Source: a virus
Taxonomy: Duplodnaviria > Caudoviricetes
Virus record (IMG/VR): IMGVR_UViG_3300030330_003968
Location: 5,711-69,710 of that record
DNA: 64,000 nt
Direction: 5' to 3' (one strand)
Shown: positions 2,825 through 53,168 of the stretch, piece after piece
Numbering within the stretch: the stretch's first letter is position 1
How the letters are laid out: each line of letters opens with the position of its first letter
Program-made: the position numbers and the translations under genes
Notes under the pieces: generated by a model
Database searches by the model: none
What the model saw: only the letters and a program-made list of their open reading frames with translations
Told to the model about the DNA's origin: nothing

Positions 2825-2829
2825 TAGAA

Positions 2830-3465
2830 TCACCTACACTTAAGAATATCCCATGCCTTTTGCATAGCCTTATCTTCTTTCATACTTTCAGGAACATAAA
2901 TAGCATAAGTTCTATTTTTAGCCTTTAGTACATCATAATGTCTTTGAGGAATATCAGGATGTTTTTCTTCAGCATTGAGAAATATCTCAAAACCCTCACT
3001 TGTATATTTTGCTAATCTATTTTCGCTATCATTAGATAAATCAAGAACAATAGGAATCTTTCTTTGGTTTGCTAAATCTTTGATAAAAGGCATTCTTTTT
3101 TCATCTAACATTTTATTAAAACCTCTACCTCTATAATCTACTCCATACATTTCAGGGTGTTTAGGCATACCGCCTACTGTAAAACTACCTGCATCACCAA
3201 TAACATCATCTAATGCTACTACCGCAACTTTAGCAACATAATAACCAAATTCATCTACAATCATCCAAATATAATATTCTTCTCCTTTAAATGTAAAAGG
3301 ACTGTCCTTTCTATTTCTTGGTCTTCTATTTGCTTTCTTCCACCTATTACCTATTTCTATAAATTTGGCTTCTGAGATTGGACCAACTAATGTAAAGGTT
3401 TCCCCATTATTTTCAAATGTTTCTCCCGCAGGTACAGGGTATGTTCCTTCTCTTTCACCTTTCAT
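2830..3465 (-). CDS. GNAT-like acetyltransferase with C-terminal KAWDILK motif
   Basis: acetyl-CoA binding motif A-like VDYRGRGFNKML and downstream YTSEGF. Confidence 0.55.
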   Translation of the reverse strand: MKGEREGTYPVPAGETFENNGETFTLVGPISEAKFIEIGNRWKKANRRPRNRKDSPFTFKGEEYYIWMIVDEFGYYVAKVAVVALDDVIGDAGSFTVGGMPKHPEMYGVDYRGRGFNKMLDEKRMPFIKDLANQRKIPIVLDLSNDSENRLAKYTSEGFEIFLNAEEKHPDIPQRHYDVLKAKNRTYAIYVPESMKEDKAMQKAWDILKCR

Positions 3466-31562: not shown

Positions 31563-31767
31563 AATCAAAAAGTATCTTGAAGAAAATGGTCCAAAAAGTA
31601 CACACCAAATATATGAATATATTAATGGTAGTGAAAAGAATGGAATTCAGATGCAAGCATTGGCAAATGTATTGGCTAAGAGTCCATACATTAGAGAATC
31701 CCATACTGAAAGGGTCAAGGGAATTACACTCAATTCGTATAAAGGAAAGGTTTGGACTGTAAAATGA
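31537..31767 (+). CDS. Winged-HTH protein
   Basis: IKKYLEENGPKSTHQIYEYI...MQALANVL...W. Confidence 0.6.
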   Translation: MKYKRIRIKIKKYLEENGPKSTHQIYEYINGSEKNGIQMQALANVLAKSPYIRESHTERVKGITLNSYKGKVWTVK

Positions 31768-31922
31768 TGCGAAATGAGATACTGTACAATTTGTATAGTA
31801 TAGGGCATTGGCTTTTAGTCATTATGTCCAATATATTAAACAAGAACCTTAATAGGCTCAGTTTAGTATGTAAATACGGTGAGGAACAGCCTAATGTCCA
31901 ATATCAAAAAAGGTGAAAAGAA

Positions 31923-32231
31923 ATGAGCAAAAATGTGAATGAATTGGAAACAATGTTGAAGGAACAGGTAGAAGCAGGTCTTATTACAGACTTTGAACTA
32001 CGAAGAATTATGAGTCGTGCAACAGGTGGAGTCTATCTTGATGAAAACCAAAATGCACAGTTTGAGTTGGCTAAGAATTTTATCAATGCGACTCTAACTA
32101 CTCTATCTAACTTAAATGTTGTAAGTGAAAAGAGAATGGAAAGTACCCGAAGGAAGATGGAAAAGGCTATTGTAAAGCATATTACAAATGGTGGAAATCT
32201 AACTGAAAATGGAGAACCCGTTTGGGAATAA
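31923..32231 (+). CDS. Hypothetical protein
   Basis: AGGTGA RBS; upstream ACCTTAATAG TATA-like box. Confidence 0.65.
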   Translation: MSKNVNELETMLKEQVEAGLITDFELRRIMSRATGGVYLDENQNAQFELAKNFINATLTTLSNLNVVSEKRMESTRRKMEKAIVKHITNGGNLTENGEPVWE

Positions 32232-32250
32232 ATAAAAGGAGATGAAAAGA

Positions 32251-32478
32251 ATGGTAAAAATTACAATTTTGAATGAAACAGGACACACAGAACTAACTCT
32301 TAGTGCAAGTGAAGCATTAGACCAAATTATCGACCACCCAACCCATTGGGCTTATGTTGATGGTGAATTGGTTTCAAGAGAAGATATTGCTAACATTGAT
32401 TTTAATGCGGTTGATGAAGTCGTATTGACTCAAGCAATTGTTGGTGGTTCTTGTACCATTGATGATGACGATTATTGA
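32251..32478 (+). CDS. Ubiquitin-like (ThiS/MoaD/SAMP beta-grasp) protein with extension after GG
   Basis: MVKITIL start, AYVDGELV, DEVVLTQAIVGG followed by SCTIDDDDY. Confidence 0.7.
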   Translation: MVKITILNETGHTELTLSASEALDQIIDHPTHWAYVDGELVSREDIANIDFNAVDEVVLTQAIVGGSCTIDDDDY

Positions 32479-32615
32479 TTAATATCAGTAATTAGAGTCT
32501 AAAGTTAGTATGCGACTATGGCATATGGTTTTGGTATTTTACCGATAAAATATTCTACTCATAGCAGTTTCCCGTCTGCTTTATCAAAACGGGATTTTTT
32601 TATTGAGGTTTCATT

Positions 32616-32990
32616 ATGTATTGGAAAAAAGAAAGTGGCTCAGAAGAATTTATTGAAATTTGTGATTATTTAGCGGAAAAGAGAAATGATTATTATACTT
32701 ATAGTCATTACCCAAGTCCTCTTTACCATATTAAATATCCTGTTTTGAATAAAGGTTGGAATACTCAATTAAAAGATATGATTGCCGAGGCAAAAGAAAC
32801 AATAAAGAATTCTTGGAGTGAAGAAACTGAAGAAGAACAAGCAAAAAGGTATGATTGGATAATGATACAAAAACTAAACAGATGGGCAAATAGTAATATT
32901 ACTTGGAAAGATGGCAAAGATGGCAGGAAAAGATTTGCCGAAGCAAAGGATATGATTTACTATTTCAAGAAAGAGGCGAACTTCTCATGA
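32616..32990 (+). CDS. Hypothetical protein
   Basis: ORF with GAGG RBS. Confidence 0.55.
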   Translation: MYWKKESGSEEFIEICDYLAEKRNDYYTYSHYPSPLYHIKYPVLNKGWNTQLKDMIAEAKETIKNSWSEETEEEQAKRYDWIMIQKLNRWANSNITWKDGKDGRKRFAEAKDMIYYFKKEANFS

Positions 32991-33313
32991 AGATAATTGG
33001 TGATTTCTGGTTTTACCTAAAAAATCTATATCCATTGTGGAAAGATATTAGGAGTCAAAGGAAATATTCAAGGTCTGTTGAAAAGAGGAAAAACGAAGAA
33101 GGTCTTTTGTCAGCATTTTTGTATGAATTTGAACAAAATATTATGGAAGAGATGCCGCAGGAGTTAGTTAAATTAATATTAACTGAATTTTGTGTAAATT
33201 ATTTCAGAATAACTGAGGAAAGTAAATCCGAAATGGATAAAGAATTAGAATCAACACTTGTACAGTATATGAATAAGTACGAGATTACTCTTGTGAGGTA
33301 TAATACTGCATAA
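32987..33313 (+). CDS. Hypothetical protein
   Basis: ATGA overlap with previous gene (MKIIGDFW). Confidence 0.55.
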   Translation: MKIIGDFWFYLKNLYPLWKDIRSQRKYSRSVEKRKNEEGLLSAFLYEFEQNIMEEMPQELVKLILTEFCVNYFRITEESKSEMDKELESTLVQYMNKYEITLVRYNTA

Positions 33314-33325
33314 GTAGAAAAACAT

Positions 33326-33413
33326 AGCGAGATGGCTGAGTTTGGTTAAAAGCGCAGGGCTTAAAATCCTGTCCGTATTTGGTTCGTGGGTTCAAATCCC
33401 ACTCTCGCTACCA
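33326..33413 (+). tRNA. trnL: tRNA-Leu (anticodon TAA), CCA encoded
   Basis: acceptor AGCGAGA/TCTCGCT, anticodon arm CAGGG-CTTAAAA-TCCTG, long variable arm, T arm GTGGG-TTCAAAT-CCCAC, ACCA end. Confidence 0.92.
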
Positions 33414-33434
33414 ATTCAATTTAATAATTAAAAT

Positions 33435-33506
33435 GGGCATATGGTGTAATGGATAGCATTCTAACCTTCTAAGTTGGAGATAGGGGTTCGATTCCTCTTA
33501 TGCCCG
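33435..33506 (+). tRNA. trnR: tRNA-Arg (anticodon TCT), CCA not encoded
   Basis: acceptor GGGCATA/TATGCCC, anticodon arm CTAAC-CTTCTAA-GTTGG, T loop GGTTCGATTCC. Confidence 0.9.
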
Positions 33507-33534
33507 CTTTAATTATTTTATGGAGATGATGGTT

Positions 33535-33765
33535 ATGACAATAACAGGAAAAGAGATTAAGAAAATGAGAAAGGAGATTGAATCATTAGGCGTAGAAATA
33601 GTTGAAATGATTAATGCAAGACATATTAAATTGAGGATTAGAAACCCTCAAACGGGAACAGTTAAACTAATTACTGTTTCTAAAACCCCAAGAGCAAGCG
33701 GGAGATGGGATGAAGTTAAATCATCCATAAGAAAAGTATTCAGAAAAGAAGGTGAAACAATATGA
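33535..33765 (+). CDS. HicA-like small basic protein
   Basis: helix-LGVEIV-RHIKL-beta-VSKTP-helix layout typical of HicA/dsRBD fold. Confidence 0.5.
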   Translation: MTITGKEIKKMRKEIESLGVEIVEMINARHIKLRIRNPQTGTVKLITVSKTPRASGRWDEVKSSIRKVFRKEGETI

Positions 33766-34085
33766 GTGATGAGAGAAAGAAATTGAAAGAAAGATGGCTG
33801 AAAAATATAGGACATACTGTTGCAGATAAACTTAGAGAGTGTATTATTTGTGGTAAAGGCATACAATCATGTGCAAAAACCAAGTCCTTAATTGGTGGTG
33901 TAGAACTAATTTCCTATGCTACATGGGGAAGTAGGCATGATTATACCTATAACGATTTTAATCGCAAGCAAATAGCATTTTGCATATGTGATGACTGCTA
34001 TGAAAAGAATATTGAGAAGGGGATAATATTTGTCAATATTAGAAATGACGATTTTTTGAAGCCTAAGAAAGAAGAAAAATCTTGA
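33762..34085 (+). CDS. Zn-binding hypothetical protein
   Basis: CIIC...WGSRHD...ICDDC. Confidence 0.55.
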   Translation: MSDERKKLKERWLKNIGHTVADKLRECIICGKGIQSCAKTKSLIGGVELISYATWGSRHDYTYNDFNRKQIAFCICDDCYEKNIEKGIIFVNIRNDDFLKPKKEEKS

Positions 34086-34170
34086 ATTTTTTGAAGACGA
34101 CAGCAAGAAACCCTATTTTTTTGCATTTTTTAGTGTAAAAAAGACTATGGGTAATATATATGGTGATAGT

Positions 34171-34617
34171 ATGAGAATAAGTAAATTTTATAGCGAGTAT
34201 AATATAGATGAAGAAGATGAGTTTTTCCTACCAAGTCGCATTTTTGAAGGTGATTTAAAAGCATCAGGTTGGAAGATAAAAGAGTCATTAAGTTTAGCAA
34301 ATTTCCATAGAAAATTTAATGACTTAAATGTTATCTGTTCTAATCCTAACTTTTATAGTGATGGACAGATAATTGGAGAAAGCCGAAAAAGTATAATTCA
34401 AGCAAGTGGTAATCCTATTATAAAATACAAAGGTAAAGAGTATTGGGATATTGGTAATCTTGTTAGAATACATGGCGATAAAGCAATAGCCGAAATGGGA
34501 GAATGGGAATGGTTACAAGTAATGGATTGGATAGTTGTAACAAAAAAAGACAATAGATTGTTAGCACAATTTAACAAATGGGATGAATTACCAACAAGAA
34601 AGGAAGTGGAAAAATGA
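34171..34617 (+). CDS. Hypothetical protein
   Basis: GGTGA RBS; ATGA overlap with RNR. Confidence 0.55.
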   Translation: MRISKFYSEYNIDEEDEFFLPSRIFEGDLKASGWKIKESLSLANFHRKFNDLNVICSNPNFYSDGQIIGESRKSIIQASGNPIIKYKGKEYWDIGNLVRIHGDKAIAEMGEWEWLQVMDWIVVTKKDNRLLAQFNKWDELPTRKEVEK

Positions 34618-36473
34618 ATAAAGCAAGTAAGATTTTAAGTGATGTGACGGTACATATGAAGTATGCAAAGTATTTACCCGAAAAAGAAAGAAGAGAAACA
34701 TGGGCTGAGTTATGTTATAGAAATATGGAGATGCATTTGAAAAAGTATCCTCATTTGGAAAGTCAAATAACTCAAACCTATGCTGAATATGTATTCAATA
34801 AAAAGATTCTACCATCTATGAGAAGTCTTCAGTTTGGAGGAAAGCCGATTGAAGTAGCACCTAATAGAATTTACAATTGTGCTTATTTACCAATTGATAA
34901 TATTGCTGCTTTTTCTGAGTCAATGTTTTTATTGTTAGGTGGTACAGGAGTTGGATATTCAGTACAATATAATCATATTGATAAGTTACCTGTAATTCAA
35001 CATCCTAACCCTAATAGAAAGAGAAGGTATCTTATTGGAGATTCTATCGAAGGTTGGGCTGATGCAATTAAGGTTTTAATTAAGTCATACTTTGGTAGGC
35101 TTTCATCAACACCTGATTTTGATTTTTCTGATATTAGAGCAAAAGGTGAAAGATTAATTACTTCTGGAGGAAAAGCACCCGGCCCTCAGCCACTAAAAGA
35201 ATGTTTAGTTAAAGTAGAAGGAATTCTAAAAGACATTCCAACAGGAGAGAAAATTACTCCAATTCAAGCACATGATATTATGTGTCATATTGCTGATGCA
35301 GTTTTAGCGGGTGGTATTAGACGAGCCGCTTTAATTTCTTTATTTAGTGCAGATGATATGGATATGATAACTGCTAAATCTGGAAATTGGTGGGAGTTAA
35401 ATCCACAAAGAGGAAGGGCTAATAATTCAGCCGTTCTTATTAGAAGTAGAATTGATAAAGATTACTTTATGAAATTGTGGAAGAGAATTGAAGAATCAGG
35501 TTCTGGAGAGCCTGGAATTTATTTTAGTAATGATAAAGATTGGGGAACTAATCCTTGTTGTGAAATAGCCTTGAGACCTAATCAATTTTGTAATCTTGTA
35601 GAAGTTAATGTTAGTGATGTTGTAAGTCAAGAAGATTTAAACTCACGAGTTGCTGCCGCTACCTTACTTGCTACTTTACAAGCAGGTTATACAGATTTCC
35701 ATTATCTTAGAGAAGTATGGAAAAAGACTACTGAAAAAGATGCTTTACTTGGGGTTAGTATGACAGGAATTGCATCTAATAAGTTGAAAGGGTTAAATGT
35801 TGAAGAGGCGGCTAATTTAGCGAAGGAAGTAAATGAGTTAATTGCAAAAGAGATTGGTATAAATCCTGCGGCAAGAATTACTTGTGTTAAACCTGCTGGA
35901 ACTACATCTTGTGTTTTAGGAACTTCAAGTGGTATTCATGCTTGGCATGATGATTACTATATTAGAAGAATTAGAGTTGGAAAGAATGAGGCGATATATA
36001 ATTACCTTGTAGAAAACCATCCTAATATTATAGAAGATGAACAATTTAGACCTCATGATACTGCGGTAATTTCTATACCACAAAAAGCACCTAAAGGGGC
36101 TACTACGAGAGATGAAACAGCAATTGATTTACTTAGAAGGGTAAAGTATATCGCAACAAAGTGGGTAAATACAGGACATAATACAGGTATGAATACTCAT
36201 AATGTATCAGCAACAATTTCTATTCGTAAATTTGAATGGGATGAAGTTGGAGAATGGATGTGGAATAATAGAAAATTCTACAATGGATTATCCGTTTTAC
36301 CTTATGATGGTGGTACTTATGTTCAAGCACCCTTTGAAACAATTATGAGGGGTAAATATGAAGATATGATGGCTTCATTGACTTCTATTGACTTGACTCA
36401 AGTTAAGGAAACAGAAGATAATACAGACTTGCAGGGCGAAATTGCTTGTGCAGGTGGAGTATGTGAAATCTAA
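34614..36473 (+). CDS. nrdJ: Class II (B12-dependent) ribonucleotide reductase
   Basis: YNC, AGGIRRAALI, TNPCCEI...FCNL, VKPAGT and C-terminal CAGGVCEI; no NrdB nearby. Confidence 0.93.
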   Translation: MNKASKILSDVTVHMKYAKYLPEKERRETWAELCYRNMEMHLKKYPHLESQITQTYAEYVFNKKILPSMRSLQFGGKPIEVAPNRIYNCAYLPIDNIAAFSESMFLLLGGTGVGYSVQYNHIDKLPVIQHPNPNRKRRYLIGDSIEGWADAIKVLIKSYFGRLSSTPDFDFSDIRAKGERLITSGGKAPGPQPLKECLVKVEGILKDIPTGEKITPIQAHDIMCHIADAVLAGGIRRAALISLFSADDMDMITAKSGNWWELNPQRGRANNSAVLIRSRIDKDYFMKLWKRIEESGSGEPGIYFSNDKDWGTNPCCEIALRPNQFCNLVEVNVSDVVSQEDLNSRVAAATLLATLQAGYTDFHYLREVWKKTTEKDALLGVSMTGIASNKLKGLNVEEAANLAKEVNELIAKEIGINPAARITCVKPAGTTSCVLGTSSGIHAWHDDYYIRRIRVGKNEAIYNYLVENHPNIIEDEQFRPHDTAVISIPQKAPKGATTRDETAIDLLRRVKYIATKWVNTGHNTGMNTHNVSATISIRKFEWDEVGEWMWNNRKFYNGLSVLPYDGGTYVQAPFETIMRGKYEDMMASLTSIDLTQVKETEDNTDLQGEIACAGGVCEI

Positions 36474-36577
36474 TACAATATGTAATAGATAAAAAAGGGA
36501 AGTTTTACTATTTTCTTCCCGAATATTGGAAGATATTGGATTTTTCAAAAAAATAGAAACAAATAAGAAGTGATAGA

Positions 36578-36793
36578 ATGAGCGAAAGCAAGGATTATGA
36601 AAACGAAGAAAAATATGAAGTGATAAGGGTAACTTCTTTGAAATCAAACGGTAGCGTTTGGACAAAGCAGTACGATAATGAAATTGATTGGAATAAGGTA
36701 GTACCAATGTTACTATCTAAGTTTCCTCATATTTTATTGAGTAAGCAAACATTGAAGCAAGACCCACTAACACACTTAATGAATATGGAGTGA
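36578..36793 (+). CDS. Hypothetical protein
   Basis: short ORF in co-directional run. Confidence 0.45.
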   Translation: MSESKDYENEEKYEVIRVTSLKSNGSVWTKQYDNEIDWNKVVPMLLSKFPHILLSKQTLKQDPLTHLMNME

Positions 36794-37044
36794 TTGAAAT
36801 GCAAATGAAAGGAAAGAAAGCAGTAGAATTTAGATTGATAGAGAGCGAAGAAATGCCACCTGTGGTAATTAAAAGAAACGAAACAGATAACGGTTGTGTA
36901 ATTGTATTAAACCGAGCACATACTATATGGCTTAGTTTAAATCGTAGCACAATTCCTGGAATTACACAAAGTTTAGCCGAAAAATTAAATCAATTGTGTG
37001 ATGGATATTTAGAACAACAACTGTTTAATGCGGAAATGGAGTGA
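36790..37044 (+). CDS. Hypothetical protein
   Basis: short ORF with GGAGTGA RBS. Confidence 0.55.
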   Translation: MIEMQMKGKKAVEFRLIESEEMPPVVIKRNETDNGCVIVLNRAHTIWLSLNRSTIPGITQSLAEKLNQLCDGYLEQQLFNAEME

Positions 37045-37049
37045 TTTTT

Positions 37050-38243
37050 ATGGAAGAATTTATTGGACATCATATTGAAGGTGAACATAAGCAAGAGATT
37101 AACATCAAAAGTGGTGCTTTGAATCAAGCACTAATTAGAAGATTAACAGAAATTAGTGTTTCTGATGATTGGGATGTAGCAAAACATGAATGGAGAGCAA
37201 CAGGACAAGTATGGTATAGACCTTTAAGATATGAAGGTACTAATATTCAACAATTACCTGCACCTCATGGGGATAATCATCCTAATTATTGTGTATGTGG
37301 ACATCCAATTGCATGGCATTTTGAGGTTGAAAATACTGAAAACAATACTTTAGAGATTCTTGGTAGTGAACACATTACTAATTGGATGATTATTCGCCAC
37401 TTAAAAGAAAACAAAGGTATTCCTGATGATGCAATTACTGAAGAGAAGATAATTGAATGGATGAAGGAAGCAGTTAAAACTATGAAAGCCGAGTGGTGGT
37501 GGAAAGAAAATGGGGAAGATTGGGAAGAAATGTTTAATGAAGTTAAAGACTTAGATATTAGAATTAATGTCCGTTCAAAAGGACAATATTACGACCATTC
37601 TACTAAAAGATATGAACCACACATGACTATTGCTAAAACAAGGACTAATTCATTAGGTAAAATGGCTTCTGTTGTTTGGCGTTGGAATCACCCCGATAAC
37701 CCAAGAAGACAAATTGATACAAGAGGTTATCCTAATGAACAATTATGGAGAGATGTTCAATTACTATTTGCTAAATCTCAAAAGTTTGAAAAGTACTTAG
37801 ATGAAAAAATGGAAGAGGTTGAACAAAGAAAAGCATATGTCCGTGAACAAAATCAAAAGGCTATGGAATTGGCTGAAGAAAGAAGGGAGAGAATTAAAGA
37901 GGAGGCTAATAGAATTAGAGCCGAAACAAAAAGAGAATATGATAATACAGCATTAGCAGAAGCCTGTGAGTATTATGATATTCCTGTATTTTCAGTAGAA
38001 GATGCAAAGAATGATTGGGAACGAAGATTCTTAAACGATATGTCTAACAGAATTATTAGAAAGCAAACACTTTCTGTTAATCAGTTAAATGCACTATTAA
38101 GAATCATTGCACCTGCATTAGATGAAACACCTGCATCTACAAAACAAATTAATTATATTAAAAAGTTAGGTGGAGAAGTTACAGAAAACATGACAAAAAG
38201 CCAAGCAAGTGATTTGATTGGAGAATTATTAAGGAGAAATTAA
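37050..38243 (+). CDS. Hypothetical protein with CxC..H motif, coiled coil and C-terminal helical motif
   Basis: CVCGHPI...LGSEHI; C-terminal ASTKQINYIKKLGG...QASDLIGEL. Confidence 0.7.
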   Translation: MEEFIGHHIEGEHKQEINIKSGALNQALIRRLTEISVSDDWDVAKHEWRATGQVWYRPLRYEGTNIQQLPAPHGDNHPNYCVCGHPIAWHFEVENTENNTLEILGSEHITNWMIIRHLKENKGIPDDAITEEKIIEWMKEAVKTMKAEWWWKENGEDWEEMFNEVKDLDIRINVRSKGQYYDHSTKRYEPHMTIAKTRTNSLGKMASVVWRWNHPDNPRRQIDTRGYPNEQLWRDVQLLFAKSQKFEKYLDEKMEEVEQRKAYVREQNQKAMELAEERRERIKEEANRIRAETKREYDNTALAEACEYYDIPVFSVEDAKNDWERRFLNDMSNRIIRKQTLSVNQLNALLRIIAPALDETPASTKQINYIKKLGGEVTENMTKSQASDLIGELLRRN

Positions 38244-38244
38244 A

Positions 38245-39492
38245 ATGGGAGAAGCAATATTTAGAATTAGACATGCAAGTGATGATAGAAACTCTATCTT
38301 AGAAACTAAACTAACATCATCAGCATTTATGAGAGATAGAACAATTGATATTTGGGCACAAAGACAACGCCAAAATATTTCAAAAGAACCTACAATTGAG
38401 AGTATTCACAATGCTCTTAAGAATACACTAAGAGTAAATCATCTTGTTAGAAGTAGCGAGAAGTCAAGTATCTTTATGAGAGTAGGTAATTGTAAGTATC
38501 TTATTAACATGAGAAAGGTAGGTAATAGATATATGGCAAATGGTGAGTTTGCTAATCTTGATACTATTATGAAAGCAATTAGTAGAACCATTATGCGTTC
38601 CGCTTATATTAATGGAGAAGGTGAAGAAGCACAAGAAGCATTAGATGATTATTTCTTTAGATGTATCTATGTTCCTGAAAATGTTTCCTATGCTATGGAA
38701 AATAGAGTACCATATAAATTCTATGAAAGAACAAATGACGGTGTTCAAGAAAGAAATACCCGTTTGTCTTTGATGAGAATTGCTGAGGATAACTATGCTC
38801 TTGAAATTAGTAGCGGTGTATGGGGAGAAATTAAGACAAGAGATTTGAATACTTTTATCAATTCCTATCTTTATAATAAAAGAACGGGTAAGTGGTACAT
38901 GGTTTCTCCTGCTGAATTATGGTTTAGGACTGTTGGTGAAAAAGCCACTCCTGCACAGGTTAAAATTATGAAAGAATTTTTGAAGCAGAATAGGAGAAGC
39001 GATTTGGCTGAACAAAGGGCTATGGAATTGTTTAATGATATGGTTAAGAAATACGATGTAGTTACAAAAGGTGTTTATTCAAGAAACGGTGAAGATGTTT
39101 TGGCTATGTTTGTTCGTGGTAAATATGCTGATTGGATGATTGTAGATAATCAATCTAAGAGAGGTATTCAAGATGTGAGCACATATGTTCTAACTACAAG
39201 AAATACACAAGATGTAAATCCTGTTATTCCTAATGTAATAAATAATACTGATAATGAACCTTATTGGGCAGGACCTATTTGTATTGATAATCTTTCAAGT
39301 GGTGCTTCTGTTGGCGACCAATTTGCTGCGAGAGCATTTGCTTGTATGAATGATACTATGCTTGTTAAATTAGTTTCTACTGTTAGGCGATATATTAATG
39401 GACATGAAATGAATCAACAAGATATAAGGTTAGATTGGGATGCCGTGTGTAAATTGTCAGTCGAAGCACCTGAACTTAAACAAAGAAATTAA
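38245..39492 (+). CDS. Hypothetical protein (415 aa)
   Basis: long ORF; C-terminal GPICIDN...GDQFAARA motif. Confidence 0.7.
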   Translation: MGEAIFRIRHASDDRNSILETKLTSSAFMRDRTIDIWAQRQRQNISKEPTIESIHNALKNTLRVNHLVRSSEKSSIFMRVGNCKYLINMRKVGNRYMANGEFANLDTIMKAISRTIMRSAYINGEGEEAQEALDDYFFRCIYVPENVSYAMENRVPYKFYERTNDGVQERNTRLSLMRIAEDNYALEISSGVWGEIKTRDLNTFINSYLYNKRTGKWYMVSPAELWFRTVGEKATPAQVKIMKEFLKQNRRSDLAEQRAMELFNDMVKKYDVVTKGVYSRNGEDVLAMFVRGKYADWMIVDNQSKRGIQDVSTYVLTTRNTQDVNPVIPNVINNTDNEPYWAGPICIDNLSSGASVGDQFAARAFACMNDTMLVKLVSTVRRYINGHEMNQQDIRLDWDAVCKLSVEAPELKQRN

Positions 39493-40069
39493 TCTTCCTG
39501 TTTGTGCAGTTTGTGGTTGTATTCAGGCTTATAGGATATATGAGGTTAATGATATTTTACCTAATAAAAAGATAGTAGTAAATGATTTAACTTTGTTATT
39601 AAATGAATACGATATTGAAGATAGAGATGAAGTTATTAAGAATGATAAATATATTTCTTATACTAATTTGTATTATAGTTATGATAGTGCTGAAAGGGCT
39701 GTGGCTATATTATATTACACAATGAGAGATTTAAATAAACCAGCAAATATGCGAACCTACTGTAAATTCTTAGGTTGTAAAGAAACAAGAGTTTCAAGAT
39801 TAGCAAAAAAGATTGCAAGACATTATTCTAATTCTGGAGTGTTTGGTATAAATGATATTGACGAGTTTTTATCTAATATGGAAATCAAATGTGAGAAGGT
39901 TTCTGAAGCGTGTAAAATGTGGAATGAAACCCAAACATTAACAAGAGGCATTATTGCCGCATATGTATATGAATACACACCATATACTCAAAAACAAGTG
40001 TGTAAAAAATTTGGAGTTAGTTTGCCAAGATTGAAAAGAAACTTAAGGAAAGTGAGACGAAATGAGTAA
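39440..40069 (+). CDS. tfb: Transcription factor B (TFB/TFIIB)-like protein
   Basis: N-terminal Zn ribbon CVNC...CAVCG and two cyclin-like repeats (AVAILYY...; IIAAYVY...TQKQVCKKFGVS). Confidence 0.7.
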   Translation: MPCVNCQSKHLNLNKEINLPVCAVCGCIQAYRIYEVNDILPNKKIVVNDLTLLLNEYDIEDRDEVIKNDKYISYTNLYYSYDSAERAVAILYYTMRDLNKPANMRTYCKFLGCKETRVSRLAKKIARHYSNSGVFGINDIDEFLSNMEIKCEKVSEACKMWNETQTLTRGIIAAYVYEYTPYTQKQVCKKFGVSLPRLKRNLRKVRRNE

Positions 40070-40619
40070 AAGAAATGTAATGATAATTGGTGCAGGTGGA
40101 ATTGGAAGTTTTCTAATACCACTTTTGGATAAAGTAGGAATATATGATATTACTGTATATGACCCCGACATTGTTGAGGAAAAGAATATCACATATCAAA
40201 ACTTTACCAAAGAAGATATTGAAAAGAAAAAGGTTGATGTAATGGATGAAAGATATAATGTATCTGCTAATCCTTATCCTGTTCTAACTGCTAATCAATT
40301 GAAAGGATATGATTTGGTTGTTTGTTGTGCTGATAACTTAGATATTAGACGCACTATGTACAATTCAAATGTTAAATGGTTAGACCTAAGAGCACAAGCA
40401 AGAAACGCTGCAATGATTTCTTTCTTGGAAGATGCTAATTTGTATAATGTATTTACAAGTGGACCTGATGGTTCTTTTAGTTGTCAAGGAGATACTTGGG
40501 AAGGAAAACCTGAAGGTGTTAATTTCATGCAAGTTGTAATTGCAGGTTATGGCGCACAATGGATGCAAAGATGGTTTAATGGAGATTATGTTGAAAAGCA
40601 TTTTAGAATTAACGGGTGA
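40062..40619 (+). CDS. ThiF/MoeB/E1-like adenylyltransferase
   Basis: IIGAGGIGS, YDPDIVEEKNITYQNF, KKKVD, VVCCADNLDIR. Confidence 0.88.
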   Translation: MSKRNVMIIGAGGIGSFLIPLLDKVGIYDITVYDPDIVEEKNITYQNFTKEDIEKKKVDVMDERYNVSANPYPVLTANQLKGYDLVVCCADNLDIRRTMYNSNVKWLDLRAQARNAAMISFLEDANLYNVFTSGPDGSFSCQGDTWEGKPEGVNFMQVVIAGYGAQWMQRWFNGDYVEKHFRING

Positions 40620-40623
40620 TTAA

Positions 40624-40938
40624 ATGAATTATGTTGAATTGATTAAGAACGGTCATATTACTCCTATTATTTGTAATAAGTGCCCAAAAGAAGATAAGGT
40701 TGTAGATAGAGAGTATTTTAGCGGAACAAGGAGTAAAGAAAATTTCCCTATGTCAATTGCTTTTATGTCGCCTATCTTATCTATTGGATTAGATTGTGCT
40801 TGTAATAAGTGTGGTAAAGAAGCAATACATATGTATATGATTGACCCTTTGGAAAAGCACAACATCTTTGAGAATACTAATTTTCCGAAAGAAGATTATC
40901 CATCAATGTATGAAATAAATTGGAGTGAGGAAGAATGA
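40624..40938 (+). CDS. Zn-binding hypothetical protein
   Basis: CNKC...CNKC. Confidence 0.55.
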   Translation: MNYVELIKNGHITPIICNKCPKEDKVVDREYFSGTRSKENFPMSIAFMSPILSIGLDCACNKCGKEAIHMYMIDPLEKHNIFENTNFPKEDYPSMYEINWSEEE

Positions 40939-41078
40939 GTGAATATAAAGATTATACAAGAGAACAGTTGATTGCTATGTTAGAAGAATCAAATGATATT
41001 GTTGATGCAGTATCAAGTTTCTTAGGTGCGACTGTGGTTGCTGATTTATATATGAATCATAGGAGTGAGGAAGAATGA
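40935..41078 (+). CDS. Small hypothetical protein (47 aa)
   Basis: manual translation MSEYKDYTREQL...HRSEEE; flanked by identical 17-bp junctions. Confidence 0.55.
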   Translation: MSEYKDYTREQLIAMLEESNDIVDAVSSFLGATVVADLYMNHRSEEE

Positions 41079-41200
41079 AAACTTTATTTATAGGAATTAT
41101 GGGAATGATTGTATTGTATTGTATCGGGAGAGTATTGTACCCTGATATATCAAATAAATCAATTCAACAAGAGTTAATTAAAATGGAGGAAGAAGAATGA
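41075..41200 (+). CDS. Small membrane peptide (41 aa)
   Basis: manual translation MKTLFIGIMGMIVLYCIGRVLY...MEEEE; ATGA overlaps on both sides. Confidence 0.5.
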   Translation: MKTLFIGIMGMIVLYCIGRVLYPDISNKSIQQELIKMEEEE

Positions 41201-41724
41201 ATTTCTTTTATATAGAAACTTGTCCTTTGGCTATTGCTAAAAGTCATAACAATGCACATTGTATCAAGATGATTTTAGAGTATGCACAAATGCTATCTAC
41301 GACTCATAGAGTTTTAGACCAATACTATGAAGAAGTAGATGGTGATTATGTATTTAGACCATTACCTAAAGATAAGCAAATTCTTTACAAAATTGCACAT
41401 CTAAATCACCCTACAACTATTTGGGTTAGAGAATCTGTACAACATTATGATTTTATGTTTGATGTATTTGAAGCATTGTGTGATGAATATACTTATCGTT
41501 ATGGTAAAGTACATCAATCAGATAGATTATTGAGAGAGATGTTGAGAAAACCACCATCTAATCTAAAAGATAATGGATTTCAAGAACCACCTCAATGTAT
41601 GCCCGATAAATACAAAGTAGAGGGAAATAGCCTTCAGGCTTATCGCAATTTTTACAAAGGCGATAAACAATGGAATGATTGGAGAAGTGAATATAAAAAA
41701 AGAGAAAAGCCAACATGGATGTGA
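41197..41724 (+). CDS. Pyrimidine-dimer DNA glycosylase (DenV-like) family protein
   Basis: MNFFY...HCIKMILEYAQMLST, HLNHPTTIW, EYTYRYGKVH, PQCMPDKYK, AYRNFY. Confidence 0.75.
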   Translation: MNFFYIETCPLAIAKSHNNAHCIKMILEYAQMLSTTHRVLDQYYEEVDGDYVFRPLPKDKQILYKIAHLNHPTTIWVRESVQHYDFMFDVFEALCDEYTYRYGKVHQSDRLLREMLRKPPSNLKDNGFQEPPQCMPDKYKVEGNSLQAYRNFYKGDKQWNDWRSEYKKREKPTWM

Positions 41725-41929
41725 GATAATGACAGAATGGAAATTAGGAATAGGAACAGGAAATGCAAAATGTAGGGTATGTGGCAAACTGATTAAAGAA
41801 GGTCAGCCAAATATCAAAATAGTCAATTCAAGGATTAGTGGACAAATTCACTCTAATCCTTTTGACTGTGGAAAAGAAAGACAAGAACAATTAGGATTTG
41901 AATATATAGGAGATGAAGAAGATGAGTGA
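41708..41929 (+). CDS. Small Zn-finger protein
   Basis: AKCRVCGKLI...H...C; start uncertain, possibly MTEWKL near 41729. Confidence 0.4.
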   Translation, partial: SQHGCEIMTEWKLGIGTGNAKCRVCGKLIKEGQPNIKIVNSRISGQIHSNPFDCGKERQEQLGFEYIGDEEDE

Positions 41930-42116
41930 CGAAATGAAGAATAGAAAGTATTGGGAGTGGTATGCAGACCATAGTAATATCGTAGCATTATGCAGATTTT
42001 TACATGATGTAAAAGGTGTAAGTGTAGAAGATTTACTTTATGCTTTGGAGAAACCACATAAATATGAAGATGAATATAGAGAAATGTTAAAACATAATGA
42101 GGAGAGTGAAGAATAA
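41922..42116 (+). CDS. Hypothetical protein
   Basis: short ORF ending EESEE. Confidence 0.5.
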   Translation: MSDEMKNRKYWEWYADHSNIVALCRFLHDVKGVSVEDLLYALEKPHKYEDEYREMLKHNEESEE

Positions 42117-42197
42117 TGTTTGAATTATACTTTATGAAAATATTAGATGAATACAGAATTATGCCGTTTATTGGCGAATTTATAGGAGAGTGAAAAT

Positions 42198-42638
42198 ATG
42201 CAAACTTATGATATAAAATGGGAATGGAATGAATGCAAAGAAATGATTAGAGATATGTTTGATGGCGATTACCAAGATGATGAATTTTTAAATACCATTT
42301 GGGAAGTTTCAACTGTATTACTTGATGGTCTTGAAGTTTCAGTTATTGTAGATGCTGATAATAAACTTTTCATTTCTAAGGGTACTGCAAGTTTTGTAGA
42401 TTATAAAGATGAAAATGTTGTTGGTATGAAAATTCCTCTTAAGTCTTGGATTCATACTCACCCATTTGGACAAGCATATTTTAGTGGTACAGATTGGAAT
42501 ACTATTAATTCTCAAATGCCTATCCTTAATTCAGCAATTGTACTTGGAGATATGGAGAGAATGAAATGGTGGAAAACACAGAATGGAACACAAAGACTCG
42601 CAAAGATGACAATGGAAGAATTGTCAGAAGAAGAGTAA
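42198..42638 (+). CDS. JAB/MPN+ (JAMM) metallo-isopeptidase
   Basis: LEVSVIV followed by WIHTHPFGQAYFSGTD (E...HxH-x7-S-x2-D). Confidence 0.85.
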   Translation: MQTYDIKWEWNECKEMIRDMFDGDYQDDEFLNTIWEVSTVLLDGLEVSVIVDADNKLFISKGTASFVDYKDENVVGMKIPLKSWIHTHPFGQAYFSGTDWNTINSQMPILNSAIVLGDMERMKWWKTQNGTQRLAKMTMEELSEEE

Positions 42639-42997
42639 GGAAAATAAGATTTCCCGTATTATCTAATTTAGTAATTACTTGCCCTATATGTAGTGGACAA
42701 AAATGTAATGTTTGCAATCAAACAGGGGAGTATGAATTAGAATCAGAACCTTATGTGGAAATACAACAACCTTTGATAATCAAATATATTGTTGATAATA
42801 TAGAATCAGTATCAAGCGAGATTCAAAGATTGTATGGTAAAACGCCTAATGTAGAAACATATATTGTAACTGATGAATACGAAATAATTAGAGTTGATTC
42901 TCTAAGTGGTTCGGTTTGGATTGCCTTGAACCTTAAAAAAGTTGAAAATCCAAAATACTTTTATAACAAGGAGAGTGTAGATAAATGGTTAGTGTAA
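42566..42997 (+). CDS. Zn-finger hypothetical protein
   Basis: CPICSGQKCNVCNQTG; start uncertain. Confidence 0.55.
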   Translation: MVENTEWNTKTRKDDNGRIVRRRVRKIRFPVLSNLVITCPICSGQKCNVCNQTGEYELESEPYVEIQQPLIIKYIVDNIESVSSEIQRLYGKTPNVETYIVTDEYEIIRVDSLSGSVWIALNLKKVENPKYFYNKESVDKWLV

Positions 42998-43272
42998 GAG
43001 AAATAAAAAGAATATTTGAAAAGATAGCCCCAGAAAGGCAATTGCCTTTACCTGCGATTATAGAATTTCAAACAAGAGCCGAAAAGATTTTGGAACAGTT
43101 TGCTGAATTGTGTAATTTAGAAGCAGGTGGAGATATGACAAAAACAAGATTGACTAAGAATCATGTGAAGTTAGCATCAGTTAATTTTAATGATAGAGTA
43201 GTTGAAAGAAAAGAAGAAGAATTAGAATTTGGAGAATGGAATACAGGAGATGATGAAGATGCTATGGAATGA
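42985..43272 (+). CDS. Histone-fold protein with acidic tail
   Basis: VREIKRIF helix 1, long helix 2 (AIIEFQ...CNLEA), TRLTKNHVKLA equivalent to archaeal RKTIxxEDIxLA. Confidence 0.6.
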   Translation: MVSVREIKRIFEKIAPERQLPLPAIIEFQTRAEKILEQFAELCNLEAGGDMTKTRLTKNHVKLASVNFNDRVVERKEEELEFGEWNTGDDEDAME

Positions 43273-44752
43273 TTTTGCAAGAGTAAATGAAGACTTTATT
43301 GATATGACACCCACACAAATGGTAAAGTATTTTGATGATAACCCAATGGATAATGTTGAACAAATATTAAACCTATGGGCAAGAAACTATCCTAATAATG
43401 GTGCAGGTGAAACAGGACTAATTAAGAGAGTTGCTGATAAATATAATGTTGATGCAGGTACTATTGAAACATTAGTAGAAATACATGGTGGATTAGGTGA
43501 AGCAATTGAAACATTATTTGGTGAGGCTGATGGAAATAGAGATATTACAGTAGCCGATGTTTATACTGCTCTACACGGAGAAGATATGAATTCAGTATTT
43601 ACTATGATTATGGAATGTTTTGATAATGTAGATTCTATGGGTAAGAAATGGTTAGCATCCTTTTTGTTAAATGAAACAAGAAATAAGTGTGGTAATAATG
43701 TCGTTAAGAAAATACTTCAAAAGACATATGGTATTCCTGCAAGTGATATTAAGAAGGCTGTAAGTTTCCTACCTATTGAAGAAGTTATTTCTCAAGCAGT
43801 TAATAATGGTGCTTTAGTATATGTTCCCGAAGCAGGTAATTATATGAAGCCTATGTTAGCAAAGGGTGGAGATTTTGTAGTAACAAATAAGAGATTCTGT
43901 GATTACAAGTATGACGGTATTAGAGCACAAATTCACCAAAATGAAGAAGGTATTACTATCTTTAATAGAAAAGGTGATGATATTACATCTAAGTTTGAAA
44001 ATGATTTGATTCCTTTGATTGAGAAAAATGCTGACCCTGTGGATTGGATTGTTGATGGTGAGATTTATCCTGTTGATACAGAAGGCAACCCTGCTGAATT
44101 TAAGAATATTATGAGTCGTATTCATGGTAAGACTGAAGAAGTAATTTATCGCAATCCTGTAACTATTAAATTGTTTGATTGTTTGATGTATGGTGGGCAA
44201 CCTGTATTTGAAGATGATTTAGATACCCGTTGGGAAACACTAAAAATGCACTTTGGTAATGATTTGATTGCTGACATGGTAGAGGTCTATAATCAAGATG
44301 AATTTTTAGAAGTCTATAATGATGCAATTGAAGCAGGATTTGAAGGGGTTATTGTAAAAGACCCTAATATGGCTTATGATTTTGGCGCAAGAAGTAAAGG
44401 TTGGTTGAAGTATAAACCTCCAATGGTAGATATTGATGTTATTATTACTGATGCTCATGCAGGTAAAGGTAGATTAACAGGACAATATTCTTCTTTTGAT
44501 ATTGCTATTAAAGATGGAGAAACATTAATTCCGTTTGGAAGAGTAGGTAGTGGATTTACAGAAGAGGACATAATGTTTTTAACCCGACTGTATAACCAAA
44601 CAGATAGGGAAGATATTATTATCGAGGTCAAGGGTGATATGATTACTAAAAATGAATCTGGTGAATACGGTTTAAGATTCCCAAGATATGTTAAACACCG
44701 AGATGATAAGACAGAACCAACACAATTAGAAGAATTAGAGGTGAAACTATGA
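43259..44752 (+). CDS. lig: ATP-dependent DNA ligase
   Basis: KPMLA, motif I DYKYDGIRAQIH, IVDGEI, FDCL, EGVIVK, WLKYK, LRFPR. Confidence 0.95.
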   Translation: MLWNDFARVNEDFIDMTPTQMVKYFDDNPMDNVEQILNLWARNYPNNGAGETGLIKRVADKYNVDAGTIETLVEIHGGLGEAIETLFGEADGNRDITVADVYTALHGEDMNSVFTMIMECFDNVDSMGKKWLASFLLNETRNKCGNNVVKKILQKTYGIPASDIKKAVSFLPIEEVISQAVNNGALVYVPEAGNYMKPMLAKGGDFVVTNKRFCDYKYDGIRAQIHQNEEGITIFNRKGDDITSKFENDLIPLIEKNADPVDWIVDGEIYPVDTEGNPAEFKNIMSRIHGKTEEVIYRNPVTIKLFDCLMYGGQPVFEDDLDTRWETLKMHFGNDLIADMVEVYNQDEFLEVYNDAIEAGFEGVIVKDPNMAYDFGARSKGWLKYKPPMVDIDVIITDAHAGKGRLTGQYSSFDIAIKDGETLIPFGRVGSGFTEEDIMFLTRLYNQTDREDIIIEVKGDMITKNESGEYGLRFPRYVKHRDDKTEPTQLEELEVKL

Positions 44753-45015
44753 ATATAAGAAAAATAGAACAAGGGAAAAAGTGTCATTATTGTAGAGAAC
44801 CTTTTAATGGAGTAGAAGAAGGATTAGTACAAATATTACCAAATGGTGAAGAATCATATTATCATTTAAGATGCGTTGGTAAATTAATGGTGTATAGAAT
44901 TGAGGGTGTATTACCTAAGCATTTATTTACAGCAGTAGTAGATGAATTAAATAAGCCATTACCAATTGAAGAAACAGGACAGACTACACTTAATGATTTC
45001 CATGAAGAAGAATAA
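44749..45015 (+). CDS. Small Zn-finger protein
   Basis: CHYC...HLRC; C-terminal QTTLNDF PIP-box-like motif. Confidence 0.55.
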   Translation: MNIRKIEQGKKCHYCREPFNGVEEGLVQILPNGEESYYHLRCVGKLMVYRIEGVLPKHLFTAVVDELNKPLPIEETGQTTLNDFHEEE

Positions 45016-51891: not shown

Positions 51892-52138
51892 CGAGATATT
51901 CGCATATGATAAAACATGGGAACAAATAGAATCTTTTTTAGAAGAAGCCGAAAGAGAGCAAAATAGAAGGTGGACAGCATTTCAAAATTGTCCAAAGCCT
52001 TTGCGTATGCAACATTGGAATAACTACAAAGGATTAGAAGGAGTAATTAATGCTCTAAGATGGGTTCTTGGCGACCTTAGAATGCCAAAAGAGAAAGTAT
52101 TAGGGAGAGATAGTAATGAAAATAGAAGAAAGAGATAG
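51872..52138 (+). CDS. Hypothetical protein
   Basis: MSDHQDS...YKGLEGVINALRWVLG. Confidence 0.55.
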   Translation: MSDHQDSEIFAYDKTWEQIESFLEEAEREQNRRWTAFQNCPKPLRMQHWNNYKGLEGVINALRWVLGDLRMPKEKVLGRDSNENRRKR

Positions 52139-53168
52139 TTTAACTTATGAAGATATTAGTATTATACCGAGTTATTCGGATATTAAAACAAGAAGTCATT
52201 GTGATACATCAGTTGAATTTGGTAATTTTGATTTAAATGTACCATTAATCGCTTCACCAATGGACACAGTATGCGGTTCAGAAATGTGTATTGAATTAGC
52301 AAAACTTGGAGGTATTGGAGTATTACATAGATTTCAAGATATTAAAGAACAAGTAGCATTATGTTATGATATAGAAGCCGAAGTAAGAACACAATATATG
52401 GCAGCAGTTGGAGTAGGACAAAAAGGAAAAGAAAGATTTGATTCCTTAGTAGGATATACTAATATTCAAGGTGTATGTATTGATGTTGCTCATGGCGACC
52501 ATTCTCTTGTAGAAGAAATGATACATTATATCAAAGAAGAATTTGAAGATGTTAATGTAATGGCGGGAAATATTGTAACTAAAGAAAGTGCTGAAAGGTT
52601 AATTGAAGCAGGTGCTGATTCTCTAAGAGTAGGAATTGGTAATGGTTCTATGTGTGAAACAAGAATTAGAGCAGGTGTAGGTGTTCCTCAAGCAACAGCA
52701 TTAGATGATATTTCTAATCATATAAACAATGTTTTAGACTTAGATACTATACCATATATCGTTGCTGATGGTGGTTGTAAAACAGTAGGAGATATTCCTA
52801 AAGCAATTGCTCTTGGTGCTGATGCAGTTATGGTAGGTTCTTTGTTTGCAGGTACAAAAGAAACTCCCGGAATTATATCTAAAATGGGAATTTGGCCCAA
52901 TGAACAATTATACAAAAAGTATCAAGGTTCGGCTTCTATTGATTCAAAAACAGCAAGAGGAGAAGAAACAAAAAATGTAGAGGGTAATTCTAAAATTACT
53001 CCATACAAAGGAAAAGTAAGAAGAATAGTATCAGATATTTCAGACGGAATAAAATCCTCTATGAGTTATGTTGGTGCACATACAATTAGTGAATTTCAAA
53101 ATAGAGCAGTATTTTGTAGAGTTACACAAGCAGGACAATTAGAAGCAAAACCACATGGTTTATATTGA
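52116..53168 (+). CDS. guaB: IMP dehydrogenase / GMP reductase family enzyme without CBS domains
   Basis: [64 protein letters not shown]. Confidence 0.88.

Follow-up and report, generated by a model that had tools for sequence, protein, structure and literature searches.

A ubiquitin-like protein, a minimal E1 enzyme and a JAMM protease encoded together in viruses of the magrovirus type: a candidate protein-tagging module

Prokaryotes, too, tag proteins with ubiquitin-like modifiers: archaea do so in sampylation, and bacterial anti-phage systems that do so have been described more recently. The DNA described here is a stretch of 64,000 bases (the window) out of the 69,710-base virus record IMGVR_UViG_3300030330_003968. 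It encodes a small ubiquitin-like protein (Ubl), an adenylating enzyme of the E1/ThiF type (E1) and a JAMM/MPN+ metalloprotease (JAB). We treat the source as a tailed virus of the magrovirus type with marine archaea as hosts; in the ocean, few viruses of archaea are as abundant as the magroviruses. An earlier note, made from the letters of the window, had proposed that the three genes form a self-contained protein-conjugation system. The open reading frames (ORFs) lie where it placed them, all on the plus strand, and the arrangement is conserved (Table 1).

The Ubl, E1 and JAB genes

The Ubl gene ends as had been reported, with a short tail after AIVGG. The core of the protein is strongly conserved, and the motifs NETGHTE and HPTHW are invariant. 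Of 106 homologues in the databases, two are truncated and the remaining 104 all keep A[IV]VGG, which in each of them is followed by a tail of 1-24 amino acids (aa). The tails are mutually unrelated. All 53 Ubl genes from viral loci have the GG. Six of these end exactly there, seven add one residue, 37 add two and three add more. In the wider family, G66 is invariant (51/51). Conservation which halts at the GG is, in these alignments, the signature of an exposed and used C-terminus.

The window Ubl has no match in Pfam (including ThiS, MoaD and ubiquitin), PHROG, NCBIfam or PADLOC, and its profile draws a single chance-level row from the PDB sequences (E 1.1). Among 51 diverse family members compared with Pfam, ThiS is matched by one (E 0.097) and Lambda_tail_I by two (E 0.043). 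The beta-grasp fold proposed for this protein fares better by structure. The AlphaFold 2 (AF2) model has a mean predicted local distance difference test score (pLDDT) of 77.7 and the order strand-strand-helix-strand-strand-short helix-strand, which is beta-grasp topology. Its fold matches are mostly beta-grasp proteins: ubiquitin, NEDD8, ISG15, MoaD, ThiS, CysO, TtuB and SAMP1. All of the scores are weak for a 66-aa domain (Foldseek best E 1.5e-2; VIA best Z 4.9, none at or above 5), and the fold is supported by the model rather than proven.

E1 is a Pfam ThiF protein (PF00899; E 3.1e-17, 63 bits, gathering cut-off 28.1), in agreement with the first assignment. In its relatives, the ThiF match covers model positions 20-205 or 21-222 of 238. 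The enzyme carries a GxGGIG loop, D34/D36, D91, R96 and C141. G10, G12, G13, G15 and D91 are invariant and align with E. coli ThiF and MoeB; D91 corresponds to ThiF D127 and MoeB D130. C141, invariant in 22/22 aligned sequences, corresponds to ThiF C184 and MoeB C187; in one weak local alignment to MccB by HMMER, its partner is instead a cysteine of a CxxC motif (score -3.5, not significant). The three enzymes share the glycine loop, D34, D36, N42, Q46, K57, D84 and R96. Judged by its residues, E1 is a stripped-down adenylase that looks catalytically complete. The nearest models in NCBIfam and PADLOC are ThiF, PRTRC ThiF, Cap2-type and MoeB/UbaA, all far under their cut-offs, and the nearest PDB sequences are a ThiF-type protein, MccB, UBA5 and Cap2. 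By these comparisons E1 is a family of its own.

Positions 32000-44800 of the window have no megablast match in the phage collection. There the E1 protein finds remote bacteriophage ThiF genes only, with less than 60% identity in 89/89 records. One of the cultured phages, Flavobacterium phage Fpv3 (KU599879.1, L123), has an ORF annotated 'hypothetical protein' with an HxHx7SxxD JAMM motif. This ORF lies directly upstream of an annotated ThiF gene and overlaps it (locus coordinates 2692-3963 and 3938-4624); the ThiF gene matches the profile of the window E1 family at E 1.6e-11. JAB-E1 pairs thus occur in cultured bacteriophages also. A scan of 8.4 kb of Fpv3 with Ubl profiles finds no Ubl.

JAB had been described as an intact JAMM protease, and its E...HxHx7Sx2D motif is indeed invariant in 23/23 aligned homologues. 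The protein lies below the Pfam Prok-JAB (PF14464) gathering cut-off (E 9.5e-4; 19.5 bits vs 25) and is, on its sequence, a divergent branch of the JAMM superfamily. Its AF2 model (pLDDT 92.5) has the MPN fold. The top Foldseek match is PfJAMM1 (E 2.5e-3, probability 1.00); by VIA, too, the nearest structure is Pyrococcus furiosus JAMM1 (Z 8.7, root mean square deviation 3.6, 109 residues aligned). The 50 VIA matches listed are mostly JAMM/MPN proteins, with a few others (RadC, cytidine deaminase, EMC8).

A relative of E1 is encoded on 386 IMG/VR contigs. Eighty-eight loci were examined, 13 from a first scan and the best 80 of a second, the two sets overlapping; Ubl and JAB were detected in them by their own profiles. 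Wherever a locus extends 3 kb or more beyond E1 on the downstream side, JAB is present (85/85), and Ubl is present in all 41 loci with at least 9 kb upstream. Co-occurrence across related viruses had been suggested as a check on the system: the trio is complete in 40/40 loci which have both flanks. Each locus without a Ubl or JAB match is cut too short to show one. Throughout the 88 loci the genes are on the same strand and in single copy, and in the relatives Ubl lies 2.8-8.3 kb upstream of E1. In the most distant loci, the trio proteins are 44-55% identical to those of the window; the ligase is 31-33% identical.

The Ubl gene sits by the class II ribonucleotide reductase gene, 0.5-2.2 kb upstream of it, and far from the E1 and JAB genes; this is so in the window and also in seven relatives of the first scan, the loci in which both genes were placed.

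Outside viral collections, a pattern scan covering 185,579 prokaryote species, each by a single genome, finds close E1 relatives on three contigs only, with 54-56% identity to the window E1. The three contigs (L114, L115 and L116) are filed under marine bacterial metagenome-assembled genomes (Maricaulis and Altibacter). All have E1 and JAB in the viral order, and L115 has Ubl too. They are probably misbinned contigs of archaeal viruses.

All six loci whose Ubl has no residue after the GG still contain JAB, so JAB cannot serve for trimming alone.

Tandem genes, fusions and the predicted E1-Ubl complex

The Ubl profile finds 143 relatives at E up to 1e-3 among 1.84 billion representative sequences. 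Three of these are tri-Ubl proteins (P0347, P0352 and P0353; 206-211 aa) in which every repeat ends in [LIM]VGG, and eight are di-Ubl proteins. Two others, P0387 and P0357, are Ubl-E1 fusions with one or two Ubl repeats before a ThiF domain (Pfam ThiF 8.6e-17 and 3.6e-17). Both halves match the window genes (Ubl at E 1e-7 and 2e-8, E1 at E 3e-21 and 1e-18). Scans of viral contigs with P0387 and P0347 find nothing. In four further proteins (P0358, P0403, P0374 and P0390), one or two Ubl repeats precede a domain of about 300 aa which has no Pfam match, no counterpart in the window and no match in the protein atlas; it may be a further partner or target in other elements.

An 8.6-kb metagenome contig (L119) carries a diUbl-E1 fusion followed directly by JAB, the core of which is 41% identical to the window JAB (E 2e-15). 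Upstream of the fusion, on the same strand, are a TFIIB-like gene and a gene for a T7-type single-subunit RNA polymerase. The opposite strand of the contig (L119 1-8612) encodes a cellular-looking wyosine-formation radical SAM enzyme and a PHO4/PhoU phosphate transporter. The contig may represent an integrated element or another type of archaeal mobile element.

The fusions argue that Ubl and E1 are functionally linked. Together with the tandem copies, they need a protease cutting after GG to give a free GG end. Tag copies outnumber enzyme copies in these forms, which would fit a modifier that is consumed better than a carrier that is recycled.

The complex of two E1 copies with the mature Ubl (residues 1-66) was predicted from alignments made for these families. 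The predicted complex scores 0.75, and the best of three controls scores 0.01. In the calibration, 116 of 157 solved complexes met a mark of 0.75, as did two of 215 mismatched pairs. At least 95% of the contacts recur between runs, and the partners have pLDDT of at least 88. In the predicted pose, Ubl residues 60-66 lie against E1 residues 10 and 12-15 (the glycine loop), 89-93 (the D91 loop), 109-117 and 137-141, and G66 is placed in the adenylation pocket. Ubl residues 7-12 and 31-35, which hold the two invariant motifs, are within the interface; this position would be the reason for the invariance of NETGHTE and HPTHW.

Neighbouring genes and the source virus

Upstream of E1 lies a gene for a 415-aa protein which the earlier note had not picked out. 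All 65 E1 loci that extend 3 kb or more in this direction contain a member of its family. Of 76 ORFs of the family, 65 have the motif G[PS]IC[IV]DN[LMIV]; the other 11 are truncated or divergent. In a C-terminal piece of 160 aa (39010-39489), I90, C91, D93, G102, D103, Q104, R108, N114 and D115 are invariant in 29/29 aligned sequences. The GPICIDN motif presumably resembles the cysteine-centred active-site stretch of UBC enzymes, a likeness which we take as a lead only. The protein may be a transfer (E2-like) enzyme, on the pattern of its conserved residues. Neither UQ_con nor Prok-E2 is matched in the window or in its complete relative G003 (Pfam).

Between this gene and E1 is a 209-aa ORF with just a weak Sigma70_r4 match (E 0.0092). 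In relatives its place is taken by a TFIIB-like gene, which matches the TFIIB zinc ribbon at E 1.7e-8 in G003 and 1.7e-4 in L119.

Of 85 loci with JAB, 78 also have the gene for a 143-aa zinc-knuckle protein, which overlaps JAB in 28 cases and lies 0.4-3.6 kb downstream of it in the others. In the window, the ATG of this gene is 73 bases inside JAB, in another frame (42566-42638), and there is no later in-frame ATG, GTG or TTG near the JAB stop codon. The protein was considered as an E2 or partner and dropped as an obligatory part, as it is missing from seven of the 85 loci. Pfam gives zinc-knuckle noise only for it, and the protein atlas gives no usable lead (best score 0.77).

The window has about 31% G+C and two opposed blocks of genes. 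Its genes encode a large terminase, a family B DNA polymerase, an RFC-like clamp loader ATPase and an ATP-dependent DNA ligase. There are also genes for a class II ribonucleotide reductase, an ERCC4/Hef-type nuclease and a GMP reductase/IMPDH-family enzyme, and two tRNAs. The tRNAs both decode A-ending codons; such codons are expected to be favoured in an AT-rich genome. The IMPDH/GMP reductase gene places a function of nucleotide metabolism inside the replication block.

Table 1. Positions of the features discussed, numbered from the first base of the window
Feature	Position	Strand	Details
Ubl precursor	32242/32251-32478	+	75 aa from MVKIT; end AIVGG-SCTIDDDDY
Ubl core (predicted beta-grasp)	32251-32448	+	66 aa, ending AIVGG
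Ubl tail	32449-32475	+	9 aa, SCTIDDDDY; followed by the stop codon
tRNA Leu(TAA)	33326-33413		Between Ubl gene and reductase
tRNA Arg(TCT)	33435-33507		Between Ubl gene and reductase
Class II (B12-type) ribonucleotide reductase	34614-36473		
Conserved 415-aa protein	38245-39492	+	C-terminal domain around invariant C346 (GPICIDNL; codon 39280-39282)
209-aa protein	39440-40069	+	N-terminal Cys-rich ribbon; C-terminal end like a helix-turn-helix
E1/ThiF-type adenylating enzyme, minimal	40062-40619	+	185 aa; Pfam ThiF
JAMM/MPN+ metalloprotease (JAB)	42198-42638	+	146 aa; E46, H86-x-H88, S96, D99
143-aa zinc-knuckle protein	42566-42997	+	CPxC...CxxC; overlaps JAB 3' end
IMPDH/GMP reductase family enzyme	52116-53168		Full-length; Pfam IMPDH 1.1e-91; directly upstream of DNA polymerase gene
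Family B DNA polymerase	53178-55580		One ORF, 800 aa

Homologues of the trio sit on marine contigs (Tara and others) of about 90-98 kb. The complete relative (G003; 96,269 bases, CheckV 100%) encodes portal, prohead protease, capsid and tail tube proteins, two ATP ligases and a TFIIB-type zinc ribbon protein. Among isolates, tailed viruses of haloarchaea have the closest polymerases (24-25% identity along the whole protein), a relation that the first paper on magroviruses also reports for magrovirus polymerases (PMC5434244). The magrovirus-type assignment rests on this likeness, on gene content and on the marine contigs of the relatives; as host we infer Poseidoniales. The polymerase of G003 is in two ORFs (L023:514-1431 and L023:1700-3370) with a gap of about 270 bases; that of the window is a single ORF. 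The split could be due to an intron or an intein remnant, or it could be genuine.

Possible outputs of the module

The trio can be regarded with high confidence as one functional module, because the three genes co-occur strictly, Ubl-E1 fusions lie beside JAB, the predicted complex has the GG in the active site and no sulfur partner is found. The last point concerns an observation already made for the window, that thiamine, molybdopterin and tRNA-thiolation genes are lacking. It holds at the Pfam level for 94 of 95 window ORFs (all except 31752-31916): neither these nor the 112 ORFs of G003 include ThiG, ThiI, MoaE, PP-loop, rhodanese or another sulfur-route family. The proposal of a self-contained system is right as to the single module. 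The part of it which limits the system to E1, Ubl and JAMM is probably incomplete, as a fourth gene, that of the 415-aa protein, accompanies E1 in every locus that could show it.

The best-supported output of the module is conjugation of the viral Ubl to proteins, with a probability of roughly 0.6. In this scheme, JAB would trim the 75-aa precursor after G66. E1 is predicted to bind the core through the NETGH and HPTHW surfaces, with the AIVGG tail entering the nucleotide pocket, and it would then adenylate G66, a chemistry suggested by the conserved D91 and the GxGGIG loop. The activated Ubl would pass to C141, perhaps onward to the invariant cysteine of the 415-aa protein, and end on lysines of viral or host proteins. 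JAB may also take the tag off, which would explain its presence where the Ubl gene already ends at GG.

Several points weigh against conjugation. E1 lacks both CxxC zinc motifs and ends about 60 aa before ThiF and MoeB in the alignment with the E. coli proteins. Its best NCBIfam rows are ThiF models, all of them far under their cut-offs. The fold matches of the Ubl cannot separate a ubiquitin-type from a ThiS/MoaD carrier-type beta-grasp protein, so far as the model goes, and its best VIA rows are MoaD (Z 4.9 and 4.8). The Ubl cores are poor in lysine: of 104, 24 lack it and 63 have a single one, which makes lysine-linked chains unlikely. The predicted pose is the textbook E1-Ubl one (MoeB-MoaD, ThiF-ThiS, Uba1-ubiquitin), and the score of 0.75 may reflect likeness to solved complexes; the job, with its E1 dimer and own alignments, was also unlike those of the calibration. 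The C-terminal profile of the 415-aa protein has no PDB sequence match at E up to 10. None of 29 members of its family matches Pfam, UQ_con included, and no E2 is thus recognisable by sequence. Most ORFs of the window and of G003 have no Pfam match, so a sulfur acceptor could hide among them. Conjugation is read from a gene set and from predictions, and it is from these that we infer conjugate, thioester and cleavage.

A sulfur carrier is the first alternative, and it is unlikely, if still to be reckoned with. Here E1 would adenylate the Ubl, a persulfide donor of the host would make the thiocarboxylate, and the sulfur would go to a cofactor, a thiolated tRNA or a modified nucleotide. JAB would expose the GG or release the adduct, as in JAB-partnered carrier systems, of which CysO/Mec+ and QbsE/QbsD are examples. 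There is a likeness to ThiS-ThiF and MoaD-MoeB: a GG-ended protein, here of predicted beta-grasp fold, goes with a ThiF-type adenylase, and the catalytic Asp and the conserved Cys align. The closest E1 models are ThiF and MoeB, and ThiS, CysO and TtuB are listed with MoaD among the Ubl fold matches. C141 aligns with ThiF C184, which we take to be the residue forming the ThiF-ThiS acyl disulfide. The position of the Ubl gene by the reductase would suit a role in nucleotide metabolism, both tRNAs have U34, and E1 genes have been printed as a moeB auxiliary metabolic gene. However, E1 has no rhodanese domain or zinc motifs, and neither an acceptor nor a sulfurtransferase family is found in the window or the complete relative (Pfam). 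The Ubl is outside the ThiS/MoaD families (the single ThiS match at E 0.097), so that host enzymes are unlikely to recognise it. Tandem di- and tri-Ubl genes are ill-suited to a recycled carrier, and the module has an extra conserved cysteine protein.

Host take-over or counter-defence is improbable. JAB would then strip SAMP-type or defence conjugates of the host, and E1 and Ubl would compete with or poison the host pathway; there would be no productive viral tagging. This would account for JAB being kept where there is no tail to trim, and JAB is structurally closest to an archaeal desampylase. Against this, the strict three-way co-occurrence and the Ubl-E1 fusions point to the viral Ubl as the substrate, and the predicted interface with E1 accounts for the invariant motifs of the Ubl. 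The species-wide scan also found close E1 relatives nowhere but on the three contigs with viral gene order.

Very improbable is an MccB- or PaaA-like role, in which the E1 homologue would act on the C-terminal end of a ribosomal peptide and so make a small bioactive product. MccB is among the best PDB sequence matches of E1 (profile E 1.3e-8), but the match is limited to the nucleotide-binding part, the substrate is by its model a folded 66-aa beta-grasp protein with a GG end and not a short peptide, and in the predicted complex the two proteins are posed as an E1 and its Ubl.

If the output is conjugation, archaeal sampylation (SAMP1-3, UbaA, HvJAMM1) is the obvious comparison. Sampylation likewise takes place in an archaeal setting, joins a small GG-ended modifier of the beta-grasp type (in the virus a predicted fold) to an E1 of the ThiF type and a JAMM protease, and has no recognisable E2 or E3. 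The best structural match of the viral JAB is PfJAMM1, known in a structure with SAMP2 (5lda), and the fold matches of the Ubl include SAMP1 (Z 4.0). Unlike sampylation, the present genes are encoded by a virus. The Ubl belongs to no Pfam family and has its own invariant NETGH/HPTHW surface. The viral E1, at 185 aa and without zinc motifs, scores 33.8 bits against an NCBIfam UbaA cut-off of 450. Precursor tails, tandem forms, E1 fusions and the extra conserved cysteine protein are further differences.

Bacterial Ubl/E1/E2/JAB clusters resemble the module in that Ubl, E1-like and JAB genes are kept together, as the accessible text of two works describes (PMC1779556; Bil systems, PMC10557695). 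The first of these (Iyer, Burroughs and Aravind 2006) reports two- to three-fold Ubl proteins 'reminiscent of poly-ubiquitin' as well as ThiF proteins with a Ubl domain joined to their N-terminus. A chain of a bacterial E1-E2-Ubl complex (8tyz_B) is among the fold matches of the viral Ubl (Z 4.5). The bacterial clusters have a recognisable E2, whereas none is detectable by sequence in the virus. The PADLOC matches of the viral E1 touch just the E1 part of E1-E2 models. The viral genes are spread over 10 kb of a replication module and do not form a compact defence operon.

E1 genes of archaeal viruses have been noticed before. 'MoeB (ThiF family)' is listed among the most prevalent auxiliary genes of archaeal viruses, and ubiquitination is mentioned, in the accessible text of Coutinho et al. 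(2021, PMC8276007). A supplement table on magroviruses includes moeB (Xu et al. 2023, PMC10160649, in the part available). Three E1-like genes are described in the Asgard 'Nidhogg' viruses, for which use of the host ubiquitin system is proposed (preprint 10.1101/2021.07.29.454249, likewise in part). The link to ubiquitination is thus made in two of the three works, as far as their accessible text goes; a viral Ubl, a JAB, precursor tails, tandem Ubls or fusions are not found in that text. The words 'ThiF', 'JAB', 'ubiquitin' and 'adenylyltransferase' do not occur in the main texts of three magrovirus papers, the supplementary gene tables of which may name the genes. A literature search on magroviruses, Poseidoniales/marine group II, archaeal viruses and phages finds no description of the trio.

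It is about an even bet that magroviruses own a full cascade, comprising a precursor or poly-Ubl, a JAMM protease for both processing and removal, a minimal zinc-free E1 and a new cysteine carrier, and that they use it in infection to tag host or viral proteins, for example for the archaeal proteasome. If so, this would be a virus-owned ubiquitin-type system outside the viruses of eukaryotes. The Ubl would represent a new family, and its poly-Ubl and fused gene forms parallel the ubiquitin genes of eukaryotes. An E1 as small as this one, without a zinc site, would be useful for mechanistic work. This reading corrects the printed label of E1 as a molybdopterin (moeB) auxiliary metabolic gene. 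It is the virus that carries the kit; the group of ocean viruses concerned is uncultured and very abundant, and each relative examined that covers the region has kept it. If it conjugates, it would give archaeal viruses a new means of reprogramming the cells they infect.

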